Made by a program: the position numbers and the translations under genes
Assembly: GCA_018816335.1 (NCBI GenBank)
Contig: JAHIVP010000013.1
Coordinates: 19,226-83,225 of the forward strand
Length of the DNA: 64,000 nt
Origin: Nanobdellota archaeon
GTDB taxonomy: Archaea; Nanobdellota; Nanobdellia; Pacearchaeales; GW2011-AR1
Direction of reading: 5' to 3'
Shown: positions 11,203-26,361 of the stretch, in pieces
Layout: the number at the start of each line of letters is the position of its first letter
Position numbering within the stretch: position 1 is the first letter of the stretch
Notes under the pieces: generated by a model
What the model was told of the DNA's origin: nothing
The model's database searches: none
The model's input: only the letters and a program-made list of their open reading frames with translations

Positions 11203-12954
11203 CTACCTCTTAACAATCATAGCAATCAAAACAACAATAAAAACTAATATAACAAGAAAAACCATTAACCAAACATGCCAGTAATTCAAAACACTATTAC
11301 TATTATCTACATTTTCATCAAGACTATTCAAACTTATAGTATCAACTATTTCTTCTTCAATTAACTCACTATCTTGATTAACAACTGAAACTTTTTTTGA
11401 AAAACTTACAACCTTACCATAATCAACATCAACTATAATCTCATATTCTCCATTCCCAGATCCAGGAGGAATATCAATTAAAACAAATTCATTAAACTTA
11501 TTACTATCAACACTCATTAATCTATCTTCATAAATTCCTAAACCATAACTTACAATTCTAACATCCATTTCTTTTCCATTTAGATTTTTAGCATTAATTA
11601 CAATTTCTACTTGTCCATTTGATAAACTTTCTATTTGAACATTTACACTTTTTTTACTTGAAGAAGAACTATGTGTTTCTGGGTCATCATCTTCATCATC
11701 ACAAGATTCCACTTCAAAATTAAAAACAAATAAATTATTATCTTCATATTCTTCTTCATATATGTTTGCAGGATCAGTTATAATTTTTAATTCATACTCT
11801 CCAGCATCTAGAACACCCAACCCAACTCCCCAATCTTTATCTTCAGAATCAAAAGGTAAAACTGGAATTGCAGAGATAAGTACATCATTAAGATAAATTT
11901 CTACAGGAACAGAATCAGGAATTGCATCTCCATTTATTTTATGTGTATGAAATCTTATCATTGCTTCATCATCATCTAATATAGGAGCATTTGGAATATA
12001 TCCTCCTCCAATATATAAATCAGGAAGTATTACTCCACCAATACAACTCCCATTAGAACATCCACTAACACAATCTTCAACTAATACTAACTCAACATAA
12101 TCAGTACATGCTGCTTCTAATGTTCCAGAATTTCCACATGAAAAATCTTTCCAATTTTGATAAACATCATCATTATAACAAACAGCATCTCCAATAAATC
12201 TATCAACTCCACAATCACTATCAATATTACATCCAAGATTACATTGTTTTATAGCATCAATCTCAAAATCAGGATTTTCTAATCCACTACCACTTATTTT
12301 TGTATATCTAAATCCATCTGAAGAATAATAATCTTTAACTCCATCATGAGCTCTCAAATTATTTATATCATCAACATAAATAGCAGTCTGTTCCAATAAA
12401 TCCCAATTAACATTATCTGAACTTACTTCCACAATGTATTCATCTAATTCTTCAGGTCTATCTGTAAAATCTATTCCAGGAAAAACTCTAAGATAATTTG
12501 TCATTGACCCAAAATCCCACACAACATATGTTGGAGCAGAAATCCATAACCAATACCAATCTAATTCATTCCCATAATCCCAACTTCCATTTGTAGAAAT
12601 CACCCAATCCAAAGGATCATTTGAATAATGCATCCCATAATAAAAATTCCCTAAATTATTAATCTCATCAACATCTCCATAATTTCCTGTACAAGAAGGC
12701 ATATCAGGAAGATACATAGAAGGAAAAACATTAGATTCATCATCATCTGAACTTGAATCACATCCAGGATCTCCATAATAACTTACAGAATTATAATCAG
12801 CAAATCCATCTCCATCATTATCTATTCCATCAGAACATTGTGATGAAGCACTAACAAAAGATAAACTTAACATCATAACTAATATCAATAAACTTGCTAA
12901 TCTTTTTAATCTATTTTGGGCATTCATTTGTGTCATTCGGAAGTTATAACACAT
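11203..12954 (-). CDS. secreted acidic Cys-rich surface protein with a CARDB-like domain and a C-terminal TM anchor
   Basis: Signal peptide LLILVMMLSLSFVSASS. CARDB-like block PDLYIGG...IYLND...GEYELKIITDPANIYEEEYEDNN. C-terminal helix WLMVFLVILVFIVVLIAMIV followed by KR. Confidence 0.55.
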   Translation of the reverse strand: MCYNFRMTQMNAQNRLKRLASLLILVMMLSLSFVSASSQCSDGIDNDGDGFADYNSVSYYGDPGCDSSSDDDESNVFPSMYLPDMPSCTGNYGDVDEINNLGNFYYGMHYSNDPLDWVISTNGSWDYGNELDWYWLWISAPTYVVWDFGSMTNYLRVFPGIDFTDRPEELDEYIVEVSSDNVNWDLLEQTAIYVDDINNLRAHDGVKDYYSSDGFRYTKISGSGLENPDFEIDAIKQCNLGCNIDSDCGVDRFIGDAVCYNDDVYQNWKDFSCGNSGTLEAACTDYVELVLVEDCVSGCSNGSCIGGVILPDLYIGGGYIPNAPILDDDEAMIRFHTHKINGDAIPDSVPVEIYLNDVLISAIPVLPFDSEDKDWGVGLGVLDAGEYELKIITDPANIYEEEYEDNNLFVFNFEVESCDDEDDDPETHSSSSSKKSVNVQIESLSNGQVEIVINAKNLNGKEMDVRIVSYGLGIYEDRLMSVDSNKFNEFVLIDIPPGSGNGEYEIIVDVDYGKVVSFSKKVSVVNQDSELIEEEIVDTISLNSLDENVDNSNSVLNYWHVWLMVFLVILVFIVVLIAMIVKR

Positions 12955-13003: not shown

Positions 13004-13825
13004 ATGATGGAGCAAAAAGAGGCGCTTGAAAAACTCAAAACAGAATTAAAACTCCGAGGGTATTCTCACCTTACTGAAAAAAATTATGTTTTCTTTATTG
13101 AAAAATTTTTAAAACACTCTAACACAAAAATTGATCTCCTTAATGAAGATAATGCAAAATCATATTTAGCGTCGTTATTCGAAGACAAGTCAAGAAACAC
13201 AATTATGTTAGCAGCTTCGGCAATTAAATTCTTTTATAATATCTTAAAGAAAAATCTTTCTGAAATCACCCTTCCAAAAAAAGAAAAAAAGCTACCAATT
13301 GTTTTAAGTAAAAAAGATATAATCTCACTTTTGAATTCTTCCCAAACTAAAAAATCTAAACTTATACTTTCTTTATTATATTCTTCAGGATTAAGAGTAT
13401 CAGAGGTTGTTAATCTAAAAAAACAAGATATTGATTTTAATGATAAAATAGGGTGGGTTAGAAAAGGAAAAGGTTCAAAGGATAGAATATTTAGTATCTC
13501 TGAAACATTATTAAACCAGGTAAAAGAATATTTAACTTCTCATCCAGATAATGAATATGTATTTTCTAAAACAACGCCTCTTACTCCAAGAAATATACAA
13601 AAAATTATAAAACTTACAGCAACTAAAGCTGGAATAGAAAAAAGAGTTACTCCCCATACTTTAAGACATTCTTTTGCAACACATCTTCTTGAAGATGGAA
13701 CAGACATTAGAGTTATTCAAACAATGTTAGGTCACGAAAACTTATCAACAACTCAGATATATACCCACATATCTCAAGAACAAATTAAAAAAGTTGTAAA
13801 TCCTTTTGATAACTTAGAACTATAA
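13004..13825 (+). CDS. xerA: tyrosine site-specific recombinase (XerA/XerC-D family)
   Basis: The catalytic region HTLRHSFATHLLEDGTDIRVIQTMLGHENLSTTQIYTH (R..H...R/H..Y) is present, plus an N-terminal SAM-like domain. Confidence 0.85.
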   Translation: MMEQKEALEKLKTELKLRGYSHLTEKNYVFFIEKFLKHSNTKIDLLNEDNAKSYLASLFEDKSRNTIMLAASAIKFFYNILKKNLSEITLPKKEKKLPIVLSKKDIISLLNSSQTKKSKLILSLLYSSGLRVSEVVNLKKQDIDFNDKIGWVRKGKGSKDRIFSISETLLNQVKEYLTSHPDNEYVFSKTTPLTPRNIQKIIKLTATKAGIEKRVTPHTLRHSFATHLLEDGTDIRVIQTMLGHENLSTTQIYTHISQEQIKKVVNPFDNLEL

Positions 13826-14636: not shown

Positions 14637-15010
14637 TATTTGATTATTTTTATTCCCTTTGCTAAAGGATTTACTTTTATTTCTTCTTTAACACTCACAA
14701 TCTCACATTTCTTGTCTTTCAATTTTTTAATTGCTGATTCTGAAAATTTTAAAGCAACAACTCTAATTTTCTTACTTACATCTCCAACACCTAAGACCTT
14801 TCCAGGAACTAATATTGTTTCTCCTTCCTGACTATTTTTATCAATTTCTTCTAGATTAATTTTACTTTGCTTACGTGTCGGAACTGAGATAAGATGTGAA
14901 ATTTTGACCCACTTATCTGCTTTTTTTGCACTTAATATAGTGCCAACTAACTCAACATTTGTTTTTCTTCTCATTTTCCTTTCAATCTTTGTTTTACTTA
15001 TCATATTCAA
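14636..15010 (-). CDS. rpl18e: ribosomal protein eL18 (L18e)
   Basis: Position upstream of L13. Basic protein of 124 aa with a GKVLGVG motif. Confidence 0.7.
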   Translation of the reverse strand: MNMISKTKIERKMRRKTNVELVGTILSAKKADKWVKISHLISVPTRKQSKINLEEIDKNSQEGETILVPGKVLGVGDVSKKIRVVALKFSESAIKKLKDKKCEIVSVKEEIKVNPLAKGIKIIK

Positions 15011-15034
15011 ATTATTCCTCTATCAATCCTTTTG

Positions 15035-15150
15035 CGGGTCACGCATTTACAGCCCCATGCCCTAACATTCTTCTGCCCCGACCGGACTGTGTTGCGGGTC
15101 ACGCATTTACAGCCCCATGCCCTAACATTCTTCTGCCCCGGCGGGCTGTG
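15035..15150 (-). repeat. two tandem GC-rich direct repeats (about 60 nt each) immediately 3' of the tRNA, each ending in CCCGCA
   Basis: In minus sense the unit is CACAG(C/T)CCG..GGGGCAGAAGAATGTTAGGGCATGGGGCTGTAAATGCGTGACCCGCA(A), present twice. GC content is far above the local background. Confidence 0.8.
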
Positions 15151-15152
15151 AA

Positions 15153-15236
15153 TGCGGGAAGAAGGATTCGAACCCTCGTAGGCACTAAGCCAACACGCCC
15201 TTAACGTGTCCCGTTTGACCGCTCCGGCATTCCCGC
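15153..15236 (-). tRNA. class II tRNA (long variable arm), most likely tRNA-Leu; by canonical positions the anticodon reads AAG
   Basis: Manual cloverleaf: a 7-bp acceptor stem GCGGGAA/TTCCCGC plus discriminator A; a canonical T-loop TTCGAAT with a 5-bp stem; a D-loop containing GG; a 5-bp anticodon stem ACACG/CGTGT with loop TTAAGGG; a 15-nt variable arm. Confidence 0.7.
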
Positions 15237-15352
15237 ATTTATGCAGGATGCATTGACACAACCAAAATCTAATTTTTCAGAGTATCAGGTTGGTAAGGGT
15301 GTTCCTTACAGCATTCCCGCTTATTCATTCGAATATTAAGGAACTTAAAAAT

Positions 15353-22829: not shown

Positions 22830-23177
22830 TTAATCATAATTTTTTGGTATTTCTCTATAAAAGGGCGTTTCAATCTTAGGATCTCTCACCTCTTTCTTAA
22901 GTATAACAAACTCTCGCTCATTAAAATGTGCCCTTCCATTAGTTCCAAGCTCTATAAATTCCCAAGCTCTTGTACTAATAAAAGCATCTTCATAGCCTTT
23001 TGGAACATAAGCTCCTGTTCCATAAATCTTAGCAACATCACATCTTAATCTATTTGGAGTTGCAACTCCGCCTCTTGCTCTTAAACATTTTACAATATCT
23101 TTTACTAATTGTCCATATCTACTATCGTCAAAAAGAACATCTTCACACCATATTGAAAATTTATCTATCTCTATCAT
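22830..23177 (-). CDS. hypothetical protein
   Basis: ORF-track ORF 22830..23228. The likely start is the internal ATG (MIEIDKFSIW...), which removes the overlap with the next gene. Confidence 0.4.
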   Translation of the reverse strand: MIEIDKFSIWCEDVLFDDSRYGQLVKDIVKCLRARGGVATPNRLRCDVAKIYGTGAYVPKGYEDAFISTRAWEFIELGTNGRAHFNEREFVILKKEVRDPKIETPFYREIPKNYD

Positions 23178-23181
23178 TTTT

Positions 23182-23550
23182 TTATTTATCAGGAGGAGTA
23201 GGTCTAGGAGTTTCATAAGCCATAACAATTTCAGGAGTAAGTTTTTCTTTTAATCTCTTAGCATAATCATTAGCTCTAGACCTCATGAGCTCATCAACTT
23301 CAGCCTCTTGATCAATATCTCTTATTCTCTGTCCTTCAGGGGCAGTTCCTTGAGTTCTTCCTCCAGGATTATTCATAGCCCAATTTTCTTGGATTAGATA
23401 GTGATTATCAATAAATCTAGCATTAATATCCCATATTAGTATCCGTTCGTCAATATCAAAATCAGGTGAAACCTCATACTTCCATCCTTGTTGTTTATCT
23501 CCTACTGTTCCTGTTCTTGTTATGTTAATTAATCTTTTAGCTGTTCCCAT
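23182..23550 (-). CDS. hypothetical protein (122 aa)
   Basis: ORF-track ORF; no motif. Confidence 0.4.
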   Translation of the reverse strand: MGTAKRLINITRTGTVGDKQQGWKYEVSPDFDIDERILIWDINARFIDNHYLIQENWAMNNPGGRTQGTAPEGQRIRDIDQEAEVDELMRSRANDYAKRLKEKLTPEIVMAYETPRPTPPDK

Positions 23551-23600
23551 CTTAATTTATCAGAACTCTTTTTTCTTTTTAGGGTTAATTAAATATTAAC

Positions 23601-23713
23601 AAGACAGCTTATTACTTTCCCATCTTGCGGGACAGTACAGGTAACAACGTGGAAGGCTTAGCTTCTGTGTTCGGAATGAGAACAGGCGTTTCCCAACCAC
23701 TATGGCCGTCTTA
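23601..23713 (-). rRNA. 5S ribosomal RNA
   Basis: Minus sense reads UAAGACGGCCAUAGUGG...CAUUCCGAACACAGAAGCUAAGCC...CCCGCAAGAUGGGAAAGUAAUAAGCUGUCUU. The 5'/3' ends pair as helix I. This is a GC-rich island. Confidence 0.85.
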
Positions 23714-23818
23714 CATTTCTTACATATTTAGGGTTTTTAAGGTTTTTGATTTTAGCAAGTTTTATAAATATTAAATTTATACTAAATTACCTTAGGAAGA
23801 AAGAGTTCTGATATCAAT

Positions 23819-24082
23819 ATGGCAGAAGATCCGAGATATAACCCAAAACAAGTAGCAGAGATTTGTAAATACTATTGATTTTATAGATTTGATTTTCAAA
23901 GAGCACAAAAAGCAATTGAAGAGGAAGATATCACTGGATTTAATGAGGCAATGAGAGAAATTTTAAGATATATAGAGCGGATTCCTTTGAAGGTTAGAGA
24001 AGAGTTAGGAATAGAAAATAAATTGCAAGAATTCAGAAAAAATGATCCTTCCTTACCTAGGGAAATTATCCCAATTAGATAA
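23819..24082 (+). pseudogene. 88-codon reading frame interrupted by one in-frame TGA (codon 20): probable pseudogene, or possible recoding
   Basis: MAEDPRYNPKQVAEICKYY-TGA-FYRFDFQRAQKAIEEEDITGFNEAMREILRYIERIPLKVREELGIENKLQEFRKNDPSLPREIIPIR, all in one frame. Confidence 0.3.
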
Positions 24083-24125
24083 CAATAACAATAAACTTCT
24101 TAAGTATTATATTCTTAGTTCAATT

Positions 24126-24485
24126 ATGTTAAAAAAACAACAAATCAAACACATAATACTAACAGCAATATTAATGACAATAGGTTTAATCATTTTCAAA
24201 CATCTCCCTGAATATGTATATGGAAATAATATTCTTTTCGATGCTTCTCAACATGTTACAATCACAATCTTTGTTCTTTATGTTCTCTATTTTTTCATTG
24301 ACCAAAACAAATCATGGAAAATCCCATACTTTATTTTTTCAGCTGTAGTTATAATTATAATATCAATTCAAAGAATTTACTCAAATCACCATAATGAAAT
24401 AGGGATATTATTAGCACTATTAATTTCAACATCCTCAATTTTAATCTCTCATTATAAATACTTCAAAAATAAGTTAAAATTTTGA
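24126..24485 (+). CDS. hypothetical polytopic membrane protein
   Basis: The ORF-track ORF starts at 24042. The internal ATG at 24126 (MLKKQQIKHIILTAILM...) is more plausible because it avoids overlap with the upstream frame. Three to four hydrophobic helices. Confidence 0.4.
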   Translation: MLKKQQIKHIILTAILMTIGLIIFKHLPEYVYGNNILFDASQHVTITIFVLYVLYFFIDQNKSWKIPYFIFSAVVIIIISIQRIYSNHHNEIGILLALLISTSSILISHYKYFKNKLKF

Positions 24486-24593
24486 CAACAACATTTAAAT
24501 ACCTAAAATTTCTCACCTCTTTAACGGTTGTAGAAAACTGAATAAAGTATTGCTAAGAGTTGTAAGCAAAATGGATAATACATATAAGATAAC

Positions 24594-25547
24594 ATGGGAT
24601 CAAAAAGTGCACCAAGACGAGGTAGTTTACAATTCTACCCAAGAAAAAGATCAAGGAAGTTTCTACCTAGAGTGAACTGGACCCCTCTTTCTTCTACTAA
24701 ACCAATGTTAGGCTTTATAGGATATAAAGTTGCTATGGCCTCGATGTTGGTCAAAGATTCTACTGCTGATTCTCTTACAAAAAATAAAAATATCACAATC
24801 CCTGTTACAATTCTTGAGATACCTCCTATGAAAATTTATTCTGTTCGTTTCTACAAAGACAAATTATTAACTAACGAAATAATTCTAGACAATCCTGACA
24901 AAGAACTAAAAAAACTTATCAAACTCCCTAAAGATTATAAAATAAAATTAGAAGATGTTAAACCAGAAACTTTTGATGATTTAAGAGTTATGGCTTATTC
25001 TCTTGCAAAAAAAACATCACTAAAGAAAAAACCAGACATGACAGAATTCGCTTTATCTGGAGATGTAAATTCAAAATTAGAATTTATAAAAAATAATATT
25101 GGAAAAGAAATTTCTGGCTCTGATATTTTAACTGATTTAAAATTAGTTGATATAAGAGCACTTACAAGAGGAAAAGGATTAGTAGGTCCAGTAAAAAGAT
25201 TTGGAATTGGATTAAAATCTCACAAATCTGAAAAAGGAGTTAGACGTCCTGGAAATGTTGGTCCTTTCCATCCAGCAAGAGTTTCATTTAGGGTTCCAAT
25301 GGCTGGACAGTTAGGAATGTTCACAAGAGCACACTATAATAAAAAAATATTACAACTTGGAAAAATTTCTGAAAAAGATATTAACCCTCAAGAAGGATTT
25401 AGACACTTTGGAAAAATAAAAACAGACTATGTAATACTAGAAGGCTCTGTACAGGGCCCAGTAAAAAGACAAGTTTTACTAACAGCTCCTTTACGTCCAA
25501 CTAAAAAACAAGAAAAGAAAAATTATGAGGTTATAAGATTAGTTTAA
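24594..25547 (+). CDS. rpl3: ribosomal protein uL3
   Basis: MGSKSAPRRGSLQFYPRKR..., an archaeal L3. First gene of the S10-like operon. Confidence 0.9.
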   Translation: MGSKSAPRRGSLQFYPRKRSRKFLPRVNWTPLSSTKPMLGFIGYKVAMASMLVKDSTADSLTKNKNITIPVTILEIPPMKIYSVRFYKDKLLTNEIILDNPDKELKKLIKLPKDYKIKLEDVKPETFDDLRVMAYSLAKKTSLKKKPDMTEFALSGDVNSKLEFIKNNIGKEISGSDILTDLKLVDIRALTRGKGLVGPVKRFGIGLKSHKSEKGVRRPGNVGPFHPARVSFRVPMAGQLGMFTRAHYNKKILQLGKISEKDINPQEGFRHFGKIKTDYVILEGSVQGPVKRQVLLTAPLRPTKKQEKKNYEVIRLV

Positions 25548-25548
25548 A

Positions 25549-26361
25549 ATGACAAAGGCAAAAATACTAACAATCGAAGGAAAACCAGGAAAAGAAATAG
25601 AACTTCCACACTACTTTGGAGAAAAAATTAGAGAAGACATAGTTCAAAAGTTTTTTGAAACTTCAAAAAAACAACATCCTTATGGCCCAAATCCTTTATC
25701 AGGAAAAACTCATGCAGCATCAGGAAAACTAAGCCATCAAAGACACAAATGGAAAACAACTTATGGATTTGGAATTTCAAGAGTTCCAAGAAAAATTTTC
25801 TGGAGAAGAGGAACAAGATTCTACTGGGTTGGTGCTTTCATAGCTTCAGCTAGAGGGGGAAGAGCAGCTCATGCCCCAAAAATAGAACACTTTTTCACAA
25901 AAAAGAAAATCAACAAAAAAGAAATCCTAATTGCATTAAAATCTGCAATCTCAGCAACATCATCTCAAGAGTTAATAACAAAAAGATATTCTTCAATTGA
26001 AGATACAAAAAATATTAACTTTCCATTAATTGTCGAAGATAAAATCCTTAACCTAAAAACAAAAGAGTTCTATTTAGCATTACAAAAAATCCTTGGAGAT
26101 TTAAACAAACTAGCATTACAAAAAAAACAAGTTAGACCAGGAAAAGGAAAACTAAGAGGAAGAAAATACAAACAAAACGCAGGATTACTAATGATTATTG
26201 GAGAAAAAGAAAATTTAAAGATACAAGGAATAACAATAAGAAAAATTTCTGAAATTCAAATTAATGATTTATTTCCTCTAGGAAGATTAACATTATATAC
26301 TGAAAACGCAATCAACGAATTAAACAAGATAAGAGAATCAGATAAGGAAGATAAAAAATGA
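25549..26361 (+). CDS. rpl4: ribosomal protein uL4 (L1e)
   Basis: Sequence and position. Confidence 0.85.
   Translation: MTKAKILTIEGKPGKEIELPHYFGEKIREDIVQKFFETSKKQHPYGPNPLSGKTHAASGKLSHQRHKWKTTYGFGISRVPRKIFWRRGTRFYWVGAFIASARGGRAAHAPKIEHFFTKKKINKKEILIALKSAISATSSQELITKRYSSIEDTKNINFPLIVEDKILNLKTKEFYLALQKILGDLNKLALQKKQVRPGKGKLRGRKYKQNAGLLMIIGEKENLKIQGITIRKISEIQINDLFPLGRLTLYTENAINELNKIRESDKEDKK

Follow-up and report, generated by a model that had tools for sequence, protein, structure and literature searches.

The tRNA-Leu(AAG) locus between rpoD and rpl18e

The 64-kb window analyzed here (64,000 nt of contig JAHIVP010000013.1, ~30% G+C) derives from a metagenome-assembled genome of Nanoarchaeota/Pacearchaeota type and carries on its minus strand the gene order rps13-rps4-rps11-rpoD-tRNA-Leu-rpl18e-rpl13-rps9. 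The tRNA-Leu gene of this cluster, which has the anticodon AAG, is intact and has gained at each end short segments that recreate its terminus: two tandem 60-nt units on the 3' side, and on the 5' side a 74-nt insert that separates the gene from a copy of its own start (Table 1). ARAGORN and Rfam each find one tRNA in the window. ARAGORN places it, as tRNA-Leu(aag), at 15152-15237 on the minus strand, and the Rfam RF00005 covariance model, scoring 46.8 bits where the gathering score is 29, at 15153-15236, in agreement with the original prediction of a class II tRNA at this position. The gene has the score, the long variable arm, and the 7-nt anticodon loop of a class II tRNA-Leu, with the loop, UUAAGGG, closed by the 5-bp stem ACACG/CGUGU. 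In 80 GTDB genomes of Pace/Woesearchaeota-type DPANN archaea and in further metagenome contigs, rpoD is as a rule followed directly by a tRNA-Leu, and among the related loci that we compared with the window (L001 to L104), about 60 have a syntenic tRNA-Leu between rpoD and rpl18e.

The tyrosine recombinase gene to which the original prediction had drawn attention is indeed present (13004-13825, 1.2 kb from the array of units), but it is a member of the NF040815 XerA equivalog family (263 bits vs the cut-off of 220) and gives no sign of a mobile element. Because XerA adjoins rps9 in at least nine lineages, including those that have no units, it is a syntenic housekeeping recombinase rather than the integrase of an element.

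Table 1. Positions of the tRNA-Leu(AAG) gene and of the segments and signals around it in the window
Feature	Coordinates	Strand	Description
A/T-rich TATA-like box, AUUUUUAAG	15344..15352	minus	About 24 nt upstream of the 5'-end copy; overlaps the rpoD end; read from sequence
Exact copy of tRNA positions 1-10, GCGGGAAUGC	15311..15320	minus	11/12 when extended to 15309
Inserted segment, 74 nt	15237..15310	minus	Between the 5'-end copy and the tRNA; ends in CCUGCAUAAAU; window-specific
tRNA-Leu, anticodon AAG (A34)	15153..15236	minus	Class II, no intron, no encoded CCA; from ARAGORN, Rfam, and synteny
Long hairpin, tRNA 3' end plus start of unit A	15099..15159	minus	UCCCGCAUUCACAGCCC pairs with GGGCUGUAAAUGCGUGA at 15/17 positions
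Unit A, 60 nt	15093..15152	minus	UUCACAGCCC, 27-nt loop, GGGCUGUAAA, UGCG, UGA, CCCGCA; begins directly after discriminator A73
Unit B, 60 nt	15033..15092	minus	Last 48 nt as in unit A, first 12 nt diverged; CCCGCA at end
Spacer	15005..15032	minus	Last CCCGCA to the rpl18e ATG (15004); no relative-type promoter consensus, no T5 run

Two 60-nt units at the 3' end and an insert at the 5' end

The two units follow the tRNA in tandem with a 60-nt period, as had been predicted, and a repeat search recovers them as 54 nt at 96% identity. In an ungapped alignment, 51/60 positions agree between units A and B, including 48/48 of the last 48 nt, and a 31-nt core present at two places in the window turned up in none of 100 shuffles. 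The hexamer CCCGCA ends both units and the tRNA itself and so occurs three times. The predicted 7-bp stem, ACAG(C/U)CC/GGGCUGU with a 27-nt loop, is present in the minimum-free-energy fold, where the C-to-U difference between the copies yields a G-U pair; the helix of unit A is, however, longer than 7 bp, its base taking in the last 7 nt of the tRNA. The corresponding inverted repeat (I3, arms 15143-15159 and 15099-15115, 17 nt, 88% complementary) is likewise part of that fold. Fold z-scores are modest: the unit taken together with the tRNA end reaches -2.1, and the units by themselves -0.8 and -0.2. The UGCG of a unit can pair with either the upstream or the downstream CGCA, and the units are G+C-rich in a 30% G+C genome.

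Apart from the two at the tRNA, no unit was found in the 64-kb window by searching for the exact core, at CCCGCA/CGCA sites, or with an architecture scan; the other CCCGCA/CGCA sites of the window bear none, and the ~0.5 Mb of related loci hold no copy away from the tRNA-Leu end. The assemblies that show a pair of units were both made from short reads (k=141) of one sample. The array is broken in others, L087 beginning in it and L005 ending in it, so the copy number is at least two, and not certainly two.

These breaks, together with a length of about 60 nt that falls within the size range of archaeal small RNAs (sRNAs), are what might commend a reading of the units as autonomous sRNA genes (C/D-box-like, for example) or as an artifact of short-read assembly. 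We regard this as scarcely credible, since the units lack both an Rfam match and a promoter of their own, and on reading of the sequence show no C/D or H/ACA boxes, while a two-unit array with a different sequence is present in the independent genome of L004 and a unit A is present in the JGI assembly L005/L104 from another sample. A C/D-box sRNA was also rejected as an identity in its own right: neither a C box (RUGAUGA) nor a D box (CUGA) was seen in either frame of the unit, and there was no noteworthy Rfam hit to a small nucleolar RNA.

On the 5' side, as predicted, GCGGGAATGCTG at 15309-15320 (minus strand) copies the tRNA start at 11/12 positions; its first 10 nt match exactly. The exact part, GCGGGAAUGC, is present twice on the same strand, at the tRNA start and 84 nt upstream of it, and a match to the 5' end with at most two mismatches is expected by chance 0.17 times per window. 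The upstream copy retains the ancestral junction, in which AUAA runs directly into GCGGGAAUGC, as it does at the tRNA start in L004. The 74-nt segment between the copy and the gene is absent in L001 and L004. The perfect hairpin GTAAGG-AACAC-CCTTAC noted earlier lies inside this upstream insert at 15293-15309, and the 89 nt before the tRNA (15237-15325) fold with z = -4.0. Copies of the tRNA start, 9 to 14 nt long, also stand 51 to 87 nt upstream of the gene in L033, L081, and L067.

Conservation between species

A comparator is the sister species represented by L004 and L005 (73% RpoD identity), in which tRNA-Leu(AAG) is also followed by two 60-nt units. L004 comes from the same sample as the window and L005 from another sample, whose JGI assembly (L005/L104) contains a unit A of the L004 type as well. 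In the case of a third, equidistant species (L001/L003) there are no units, and rpl18e starts 8 nt after the tRNA, so that the comparison of orthologous loci called for by the original prediction does reveal a difference in unit presence. Between the window and L004, third codon positions are 56 to 62% identical and the tRNA 76/84, and all four units are exactly 60 nt long. The first 19 nt of unit A agree at 18/19 positions and the last 20 nt at 20/20, giving 38/39 for the ends, while the 21-nt center agrees at only 7/21 ungapped, or ~65% by eye with two compensating indels. On this comparison the unit ends appear constrained well above the level of third codon positions, and their conservation at 38/39 between species disfavors a plain decaying scar.

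Within a genome, 48/48 positions are identical between the units of the window and 46/47 between those of L004, although the center differs between the two species. Because the same stretch is near-identical within a genome and different between genomes, the near-identity of units A and B indicates a recent tandem duplication or gene conversion. The conserved 5' block is kept in unit A only. RNAalifold applied to the four 60-nt units returns a weak and different consensus of -7.2 kcal/mol. No match to the exact 3' block, CTGTAAATGCGTGAYCCGCA, was found in JGI metagenome contigs, GTDB genomes, or IMG/VR, and a search of the JGI contigs with the 5'-block pattern matched only the known L004-type contig (L005/L104).

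A family of units confined to one tRNA end

Units of the same architecture are found twice in the window, twice in L004, in L022, L091, L008, L088/L089/L090, and L096, twice in L100, and in decayed form in L092, which amounts to about ten lineages. The shared architecture is CCCGCA, a 5' arm, a loop, a 3' arm, UGCG, a linker of 3 to 14 nt, and CCCGCA again. The helix of a unit always begins at the CGCA of the tRNA and is closed by UGCG (UACG in two cases), and the stem sequences vary by lineage (UUCACAG, UUCAUUU, UUCAAUU, UUUC, UUUU, and UAU) yet stay paired. The direct repeat often runs degenerately beyond CCCGCA into the first bases of the trailer, for example UAUUAGCA/UAUAAUCA in L096 and UAUUU/UAUUU in L100. 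Among the short units, the linkers have a weak consensus in common, CUCRRGUUUA / YYRAGUCAAU. A pattern scan of the window and ~0.5 Mb of related loci (CGCA, a hairpin of at least 7 bp, TGCG, at most 15 nt, CGCA) gave 20 hits compared with 0 to 2 in shuffles, and every convincing hit stands either at the 3' end of a tRNA-Leu or where a preceding unit ends.

Carriers of units are scattered on a rough neighbor-joining (NJ) tree of short proteins, and close relatives offer clean empty sites: L026 beside L022, L013 beside L088 and L096, and L001 beside the window and L004. Tandem arrays occur in three lineages. The distal copy of the array is decayed in L092, L100 (copy b), and L004 (unit B), the hairpin of L004 unit B being degenerate.

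Several of these properties are those expected of a small element that inserts through a hairpin in single-stranded DNA, 3' of CGCA, by analogy with IS200/IS605, repetitive extragenic palindromic (REP) elements, and integron attC sites. An internal UGCG would guide such an element to its target and to its own end, and each insertion would make a new target and hence arrays. The unit does always start right after CGCA and end in CGCA, with a UGCG complementary to both, its ends are conserved and its center variable, and it forms tandem arrays. Yet a genome region holds no more than one or two copies, always at one tRNA, the other CCCGCA/CGCA sites in the window have stayed free of units, and no transposase candidate was identified; moreover, an element limited to a single locus cannot be under selection for mobility, and we hold this explanation to be highly improbable. 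The likeness to REP and bacterial interspersed mosaic elements and to attC extends to short imperfect palindromes with conserved feet and a variable center that lie downstream of a gene, sometimes in tandem, but unlike those systems the units occupy a single locus per genome and have neither a RAYT or IntI partner nor cassettes. A dispersed family of the REP type or of the type of miniature inverted-repeat transposable elements was rejected, as the window holds two copies, both at the tRNA, and scans of the sequence collections gave no new unit-bearing locus.

Other candidate identities were tried and set aside. A CRISPR array would require differing spacers, and the 'spacer' centers of both units are identical within the genome; no noteworthy Rfam CRISPR hit was obtained. 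As reasoned from the sequence, excision of a strict bulge-helix-bulge intron within the direct repeats needs a self-complementary central 4-mer, and GCGG ... AUGC and CCCG fail in this respect, as do positions reaching into the flanks. Neither the interior of the 74-nt insert nor that of unit A is a better match to a decayed tRNA-Leu copy than shuffles are (378/500, 318/500, and 193/500 shuffles reach the score). Likeness of the unit linkers to a tRNA D-loop or T-loop, K-turn and H/ACA readings of the hairpin, and pairing of the variable center with the tRNA or the rpl18e ribosome-binding site were all at noise level. Searches of the window region against Rfam 15, at gathering as well as at permissive thresholds, returned only the tRNA, with everything else at E >=0.05 and far below the gathering score, and the related units of L100, L008, and L022 gave no Rfam match.

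Terminus-bounded inserts and the question of integration

The hairpin units are not the only inserts that end in a copy of this tRNA. Short inserts bounded by a tRNA terminus occur in related lineages with copies of the 3' end of 6 to 23 nt and of the 5' end of 9 to 14 nt, and those of L043, L060, and L063 are bounded by tRNA copies of 13 to 19 nt. Small terminus-regenerating insertions thus have a hot spot at the boundaries of this tRNA-Leu gene.

A second insert family was observed after tRNA-Leu, 110 to 135 nt long and ending in a 21- to 23-nt copy that runs from the T-loop to the 3' end. Its members lie at 587-845 in L100 (tandem), 5424-5558 in L008, ~880-1010 in L098 (with the tRNA reversed), and, in a shorter version, 3957-4023 in L044, and they share GGAUUCGAACUGAGGAGUGAAUU and an AGAACC..GGUUCU hairpin. 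L097 is counted with L098 as a carrier. This family gave no Rfam match and no genuine viral match, and two hits of its motif in viral contigs were chance matches inside coding sequence. In L097 and L098 the tRNA itself is inverted relative to the operon.

Partial tRNA copies beside an intact tRNA are the classic footprint of integration in archaea (PMC9897764), and the original prediction had offered relic attachment (att) duplications from serial integrations as one explanation. In its fullest form this would make the units remnants of elements that integrated at the tRNA-Leu 3' end, with the 74-nt segment as the counterpart at the 5' end, the downstream CCCGCA copies as displaced attR cores, and the arrays as products of serial integration or accretion. 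The broader idea of footprints left by insertion or duplication at this gene is supported: the repeats end exactly at the gene end, the tRNA is intact, relatives show presence or absence with the clean empty sites described above, and T-loop-to-3'-end copies of 13 to 23 nt, the typical extent of an att identity block, recur at the same tRNA in L008, L100 (twice), L097/L098, L043, L060, L063, and L044. L097 and L098, moreover, differ in the tRNA-flank region despite having the same L18e protein.

What fares worse is the idea of serial integrations. The units of the window share only 6 nt with the tRNA, and the 5' copy 10 nt, compared with about 14 to 45 nt or more for the attL/attR duplications made by tyrosine integrases in tRNA genes (Reiter 1989 and Williams 2002, as cited in PMC9897764), and they measure 60 nt compared with the documented archaeal elements of 9 to 23 kb between repeats of ~44 bp (PMC9897764). 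Only 54 and 74 nt, not kilobases, separate the repeats, and neither between nor beside them are there integrase or other mobile-element genes, cargo, or element sequence, the recombinase nearby being the XerA that is syntenic in unit-less lineages too. Viral contigs contained no exact match to the unit motif, and the whole region, searched by blastn against phage and plasmid collections, returned no match. Two units that share 48 identical nucleotides fit poorly with independent events, and relics should decay, whereas these units have a hairpin that includes the tRNA end and are conserved at their ends between species. Arrays by accretion are possible for integrase products as well, but overall we consider an origin as att relics unlikely.

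Transcription context and the rpl18e leader

The TATA-like box of Table 1 stands at a distance from the 5'-end copy that matches the distance from the TTTATAAA box to the start in the rpl18e leader promoters of relatives, and because the spacing equals that of the clade's promoters, this box is probably the promoter, with transcription starting at or near 15320. Between the tRNA and the rpl18e ATG, in contrast with about 37 relatives in which rpl18e is driven from its own TTTATAAA box followed by a conserved leader, the window lacks a TTTATAAA-type promoter, the leader motif, and any T5 run. The rpl18e ATG lies 7 to 11 nt past A73 in those relatives of the same sub-clade that have no units. 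From these two observations we infer that the units are co-transcribed with tRNA-Leu and rpl18e. The array had originally been placed in the promoter region of rpl18e, which the data do not bear out, as there is neither a relative-type promoter consensus nor a hit of the leader covariance model. In L008, L100, L022, and L091, on the other hand, the unit is followed by a separate rpl18e promoter.

The units would then be transcribed from the tRNA promoter within a pre-tRNA-Leu/rpl18e-rpl13-rps9 co-transcript, and once RNase Z had cut behind A73 they would form a structured 5' leader on the rpl18e mRNA. This arrangement resembles the tRNA-punctuated co-transcripts processed by RNase P and RNase Z in that the units lie between tRNA and mRNA with no promoter between. 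Another reading takes the units as purely functional, a cis-acting RNA module of the pre-tRNA-Leu trailer and rpl18e leader in which the copies of the tRNA end are mimicry and not footprints. The hairpin might stack on the acceptor 3' end or compete for it, the terminal GCG...CGC-A might mimic the top of the acceptor stem, and the module might modulate RNase Z/P-type processing ('punctuation'), termination, or protection of the 5' end of the rpl18e mRNA.

Consistent with such a module, the unit ends are more conserved between the window and L004 than the tRNA is, the four units share their length, the hairpin persists in about ten lineages with compensatory differences, the units are strictly tied to the tRNA 3' end and stand out by their G+C content, and UGCG pairs with the CGCA on either side. 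Each unit ends in GCG..CGC-A like an acceptor-stem mimic, and in unit-less relatives the rpl18e start codon comes 7 to 11 nt past A73; unlike known tRNA-like processing signals, though, the units as read from sequence have no T-arm-like element or cloverleaf, and the mimic helix is only 3 to 4 bp. The unit is also dispensable, being absent from the closest relatives L001, L013, and L026, its hairpin is degenerate in L004 unit B and its distal copies decay, the fold z-scores of single units are unremarkable, and the RNAalifold consensus of the four units is weak and different. The separate promoters after the unit in four of the loci show that a role as rpl18e leader is not general, and such a module does not account for the further terminus-bounded inserts at this gene. 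A purely functional origin therefore seems doubtful. The earlier suggestion of a tRNA-linked structured small RNA survives in part, as the ends are conserved above the level of third codon positions and the hairpin is kept with different sequences, while a promoter consensus or T-run terminator of its own is lacking.

The conserved leader of relatives deserves description in its own right. The 5' leader of the rpl18e-rpl13-rps9 operon begins ~23 nt after the TTTATAAA box and has the sequence ACCUGCGAGUUAAUCGCGUUAGCGGGA; examples are L057 (3384-3436), L066 (3351-3403), and L071 (3373-3425), with about 34 other loci, and it is absent from the window. Its motif, CCUGCGAGUUAAUCGCGUUAGCGGGA, was defined in this analysis as a covariance model from 37 instances with a covarying helix P1. 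In the leader a 5-bp helix, CCUGC/GCRGG, covaries, one pair being CG in 27 cases and UA in 8. On reading the sequences, the 3' strand of this helix seems to have an alternative pairing partner in a downstream UCUCG/UCUGC. The leader has no match in Rfam and is probably a ribosomal-protein autoregulatory leader. The units were rejected as a variant of it, as the model found no match in the spacer at default filters and, with filters off, a best score of 2.7 bits over the units. Two closely related genomes, L022 (3537-3730) and L026 (3455-3610), have further short repeats, of the form C(A/G)CAGCAAGAG(C/A)A, between tRNA-Leu and the rpl18e promoter.

In several lineages a TATA-like box is found ~23 to 26 nt upstream of the tRNA +1 position (window 15320-15352 on the minus strand, L001 3715-3746, L004 1225-1260, and L022 upstream of 3403), which suggests that transcription of pre-tRNA-Leu may be essentially leaderless there. 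Leaderless pre-tRNA transcription has been described for Nanoarchaeum equitans. If pre-tRNA-Leu is otherwise leaderless, then the 84-nt insertion of the window would create a long leader that needs 5' processing.

Origin of the units

The explanation that we favor, tentatively and as quite possible, is that the inserts are locally generated duplications templated on the tRNA terminus in a forward-inverted-forward arrangement, which were later tandem-duplicated and whose ends are now constrained. Each unit would consist of the preceding CCCGCA with the start of the trailer (UUCACAG..), a loop, an inverted copy (..CUGUAAAUGCGUGA), and CCCGCA again, so that it folds back on the CCCGCA before it and presents a new CCCGCA behind it, the arrangement yielding hairpin and direct repeat at once. 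Such copies could arise by template switching, fold-back synthesis, or recombination at the tRNA boundary; the units would then be tandem-duplicated and homogenized by slippage or gene conversion, and could readily be lost by deletion between the direct repeats. This origin is supported by the stems, which follow each lineage's own trailer, and it is shared with the fold-back or template-switch (quasi-palindrome) duplications, in which forward, inverted, and forward copies likewise succeed one another. Unlike those duplications, which are normally sporadic, the units recur or persist at one gene boundary across the clade, and their loop and linker are not locally templated. The hairpin units are, in these terms, a lineage-restricted and previously undescribed variant of tRNA-terminus duplication. 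Since the unit ends look constrained, a secondary role in processing or stability is likely, as judged from that conservation, even though the unit is dispensable.

A number of considerations weigh against local copying as the whole account. Such copying does not account for the G+C-rich 27-nt loop or for the 74-nt upstream segment, so that some foreign or filler DNA would have been captured. That many lineages have such events at the same site points to a site-specific agent, and a neutral footprint would not be expected to keep its ends so strongly conserved, which is why a secondary constraint had to be added. The weak linker consensus hints at common descent in place of independent events, and the phylogeny behind the distribution is the noisy NJ tree of short proteins mentioned above.

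It is conceivable, though we give the idea little weight, that the units represent a new class of element specific to a tRNA end, either a cis-acting RNA 'acceptor-end mimic' that would punctuate or regulate the processing of a leaderless pre-tRNA-Leu/ribosomal-protein co-transcript, or a hairpin-guided insertion element directed to the 3' boundary of tRNA-Leu(AAG). Both versions would account for unit ends that are better conserved than the tRNA and for the fact that all convincing copies stand at one tRNA in at least ten DPANN lineages.

If terminus-templated duplication is the correct explanation, the tRNA boundaries in the streamlined genomes of DPANN archaea gather miniature terminus-regenerating duplications without a visible mobile element, and such copies would otherwise be misread as integration scars or tRNA fragments. 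The conserved ends and the persistent hairpin suggest that some units may have gained a role in processing or stabilizing the tRNA/ribosomal-protein co-transcript, making them a testable case of tRNA-punctuated mRNA maturation in archaea.

An A34 anticodon in tRNA-Leu

The anticodon AAG, with its unusual A34, had been read from the sequence in the original prediction and is found both in the window and in many syntenic loci. For the tRNA-Leu after rpoD, ARAGORN gives AAG in 27 loci (a count that includes duplicate assemblies of the same genomes) and CAA in 29, and ten more intron-containing tRNA-Leu genes read CUAAGG or UUAAGG on inspection. Judged from these gene sequences, an A34 tRNA-Leu is real and widespread in the clade, in about 37 lineages, and its presence at this locus contradicts the textbook statement that archaea have no tRNA genes with A34 (PMC11066159, PMC8879553). 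Among the CUN codons in the long open reading frames of the window, CUU is the most frequent, with 246 occurrences compared with 164 CUA, 55 CUC, and 24 CUG. The finding raises the question of whether inosine-34 is made or unmodified A34 takes part in decoding, and for specialists it is probably the most surprising item of the locus.

In many relatives the tRNA-Leu gene was seen by inspection to have one or two introns, at about position 30/31 (in the anticodon stem) and 37/38. These genes, in L088 (1342-1452), L092 (812-925), L008 (5299-5423), L100 (463-589), L014, L017, L030, L080, L086, and L059, were missed by both ARAGORN and Rfam.

Other features of the window

An open reading frame of 583 amino acids (11203-12954, minus strand) has an N-terminal signal-like segment, Cys-rich and acidic stretches, and a C-terminal hydrophobic anchor, and a Pfam search with it gave no match. 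The GC skew of the window flips sign at ~24 to 25 kb (region ~23000-26000), with the cumulative skew leveling at about -9. The change adjoins the 5S rRNA gene (23599-23713, minus strand) and coincides with a switch of the dominant coding strand, and it could be a replication landmark or a mere switch of gene orientation.

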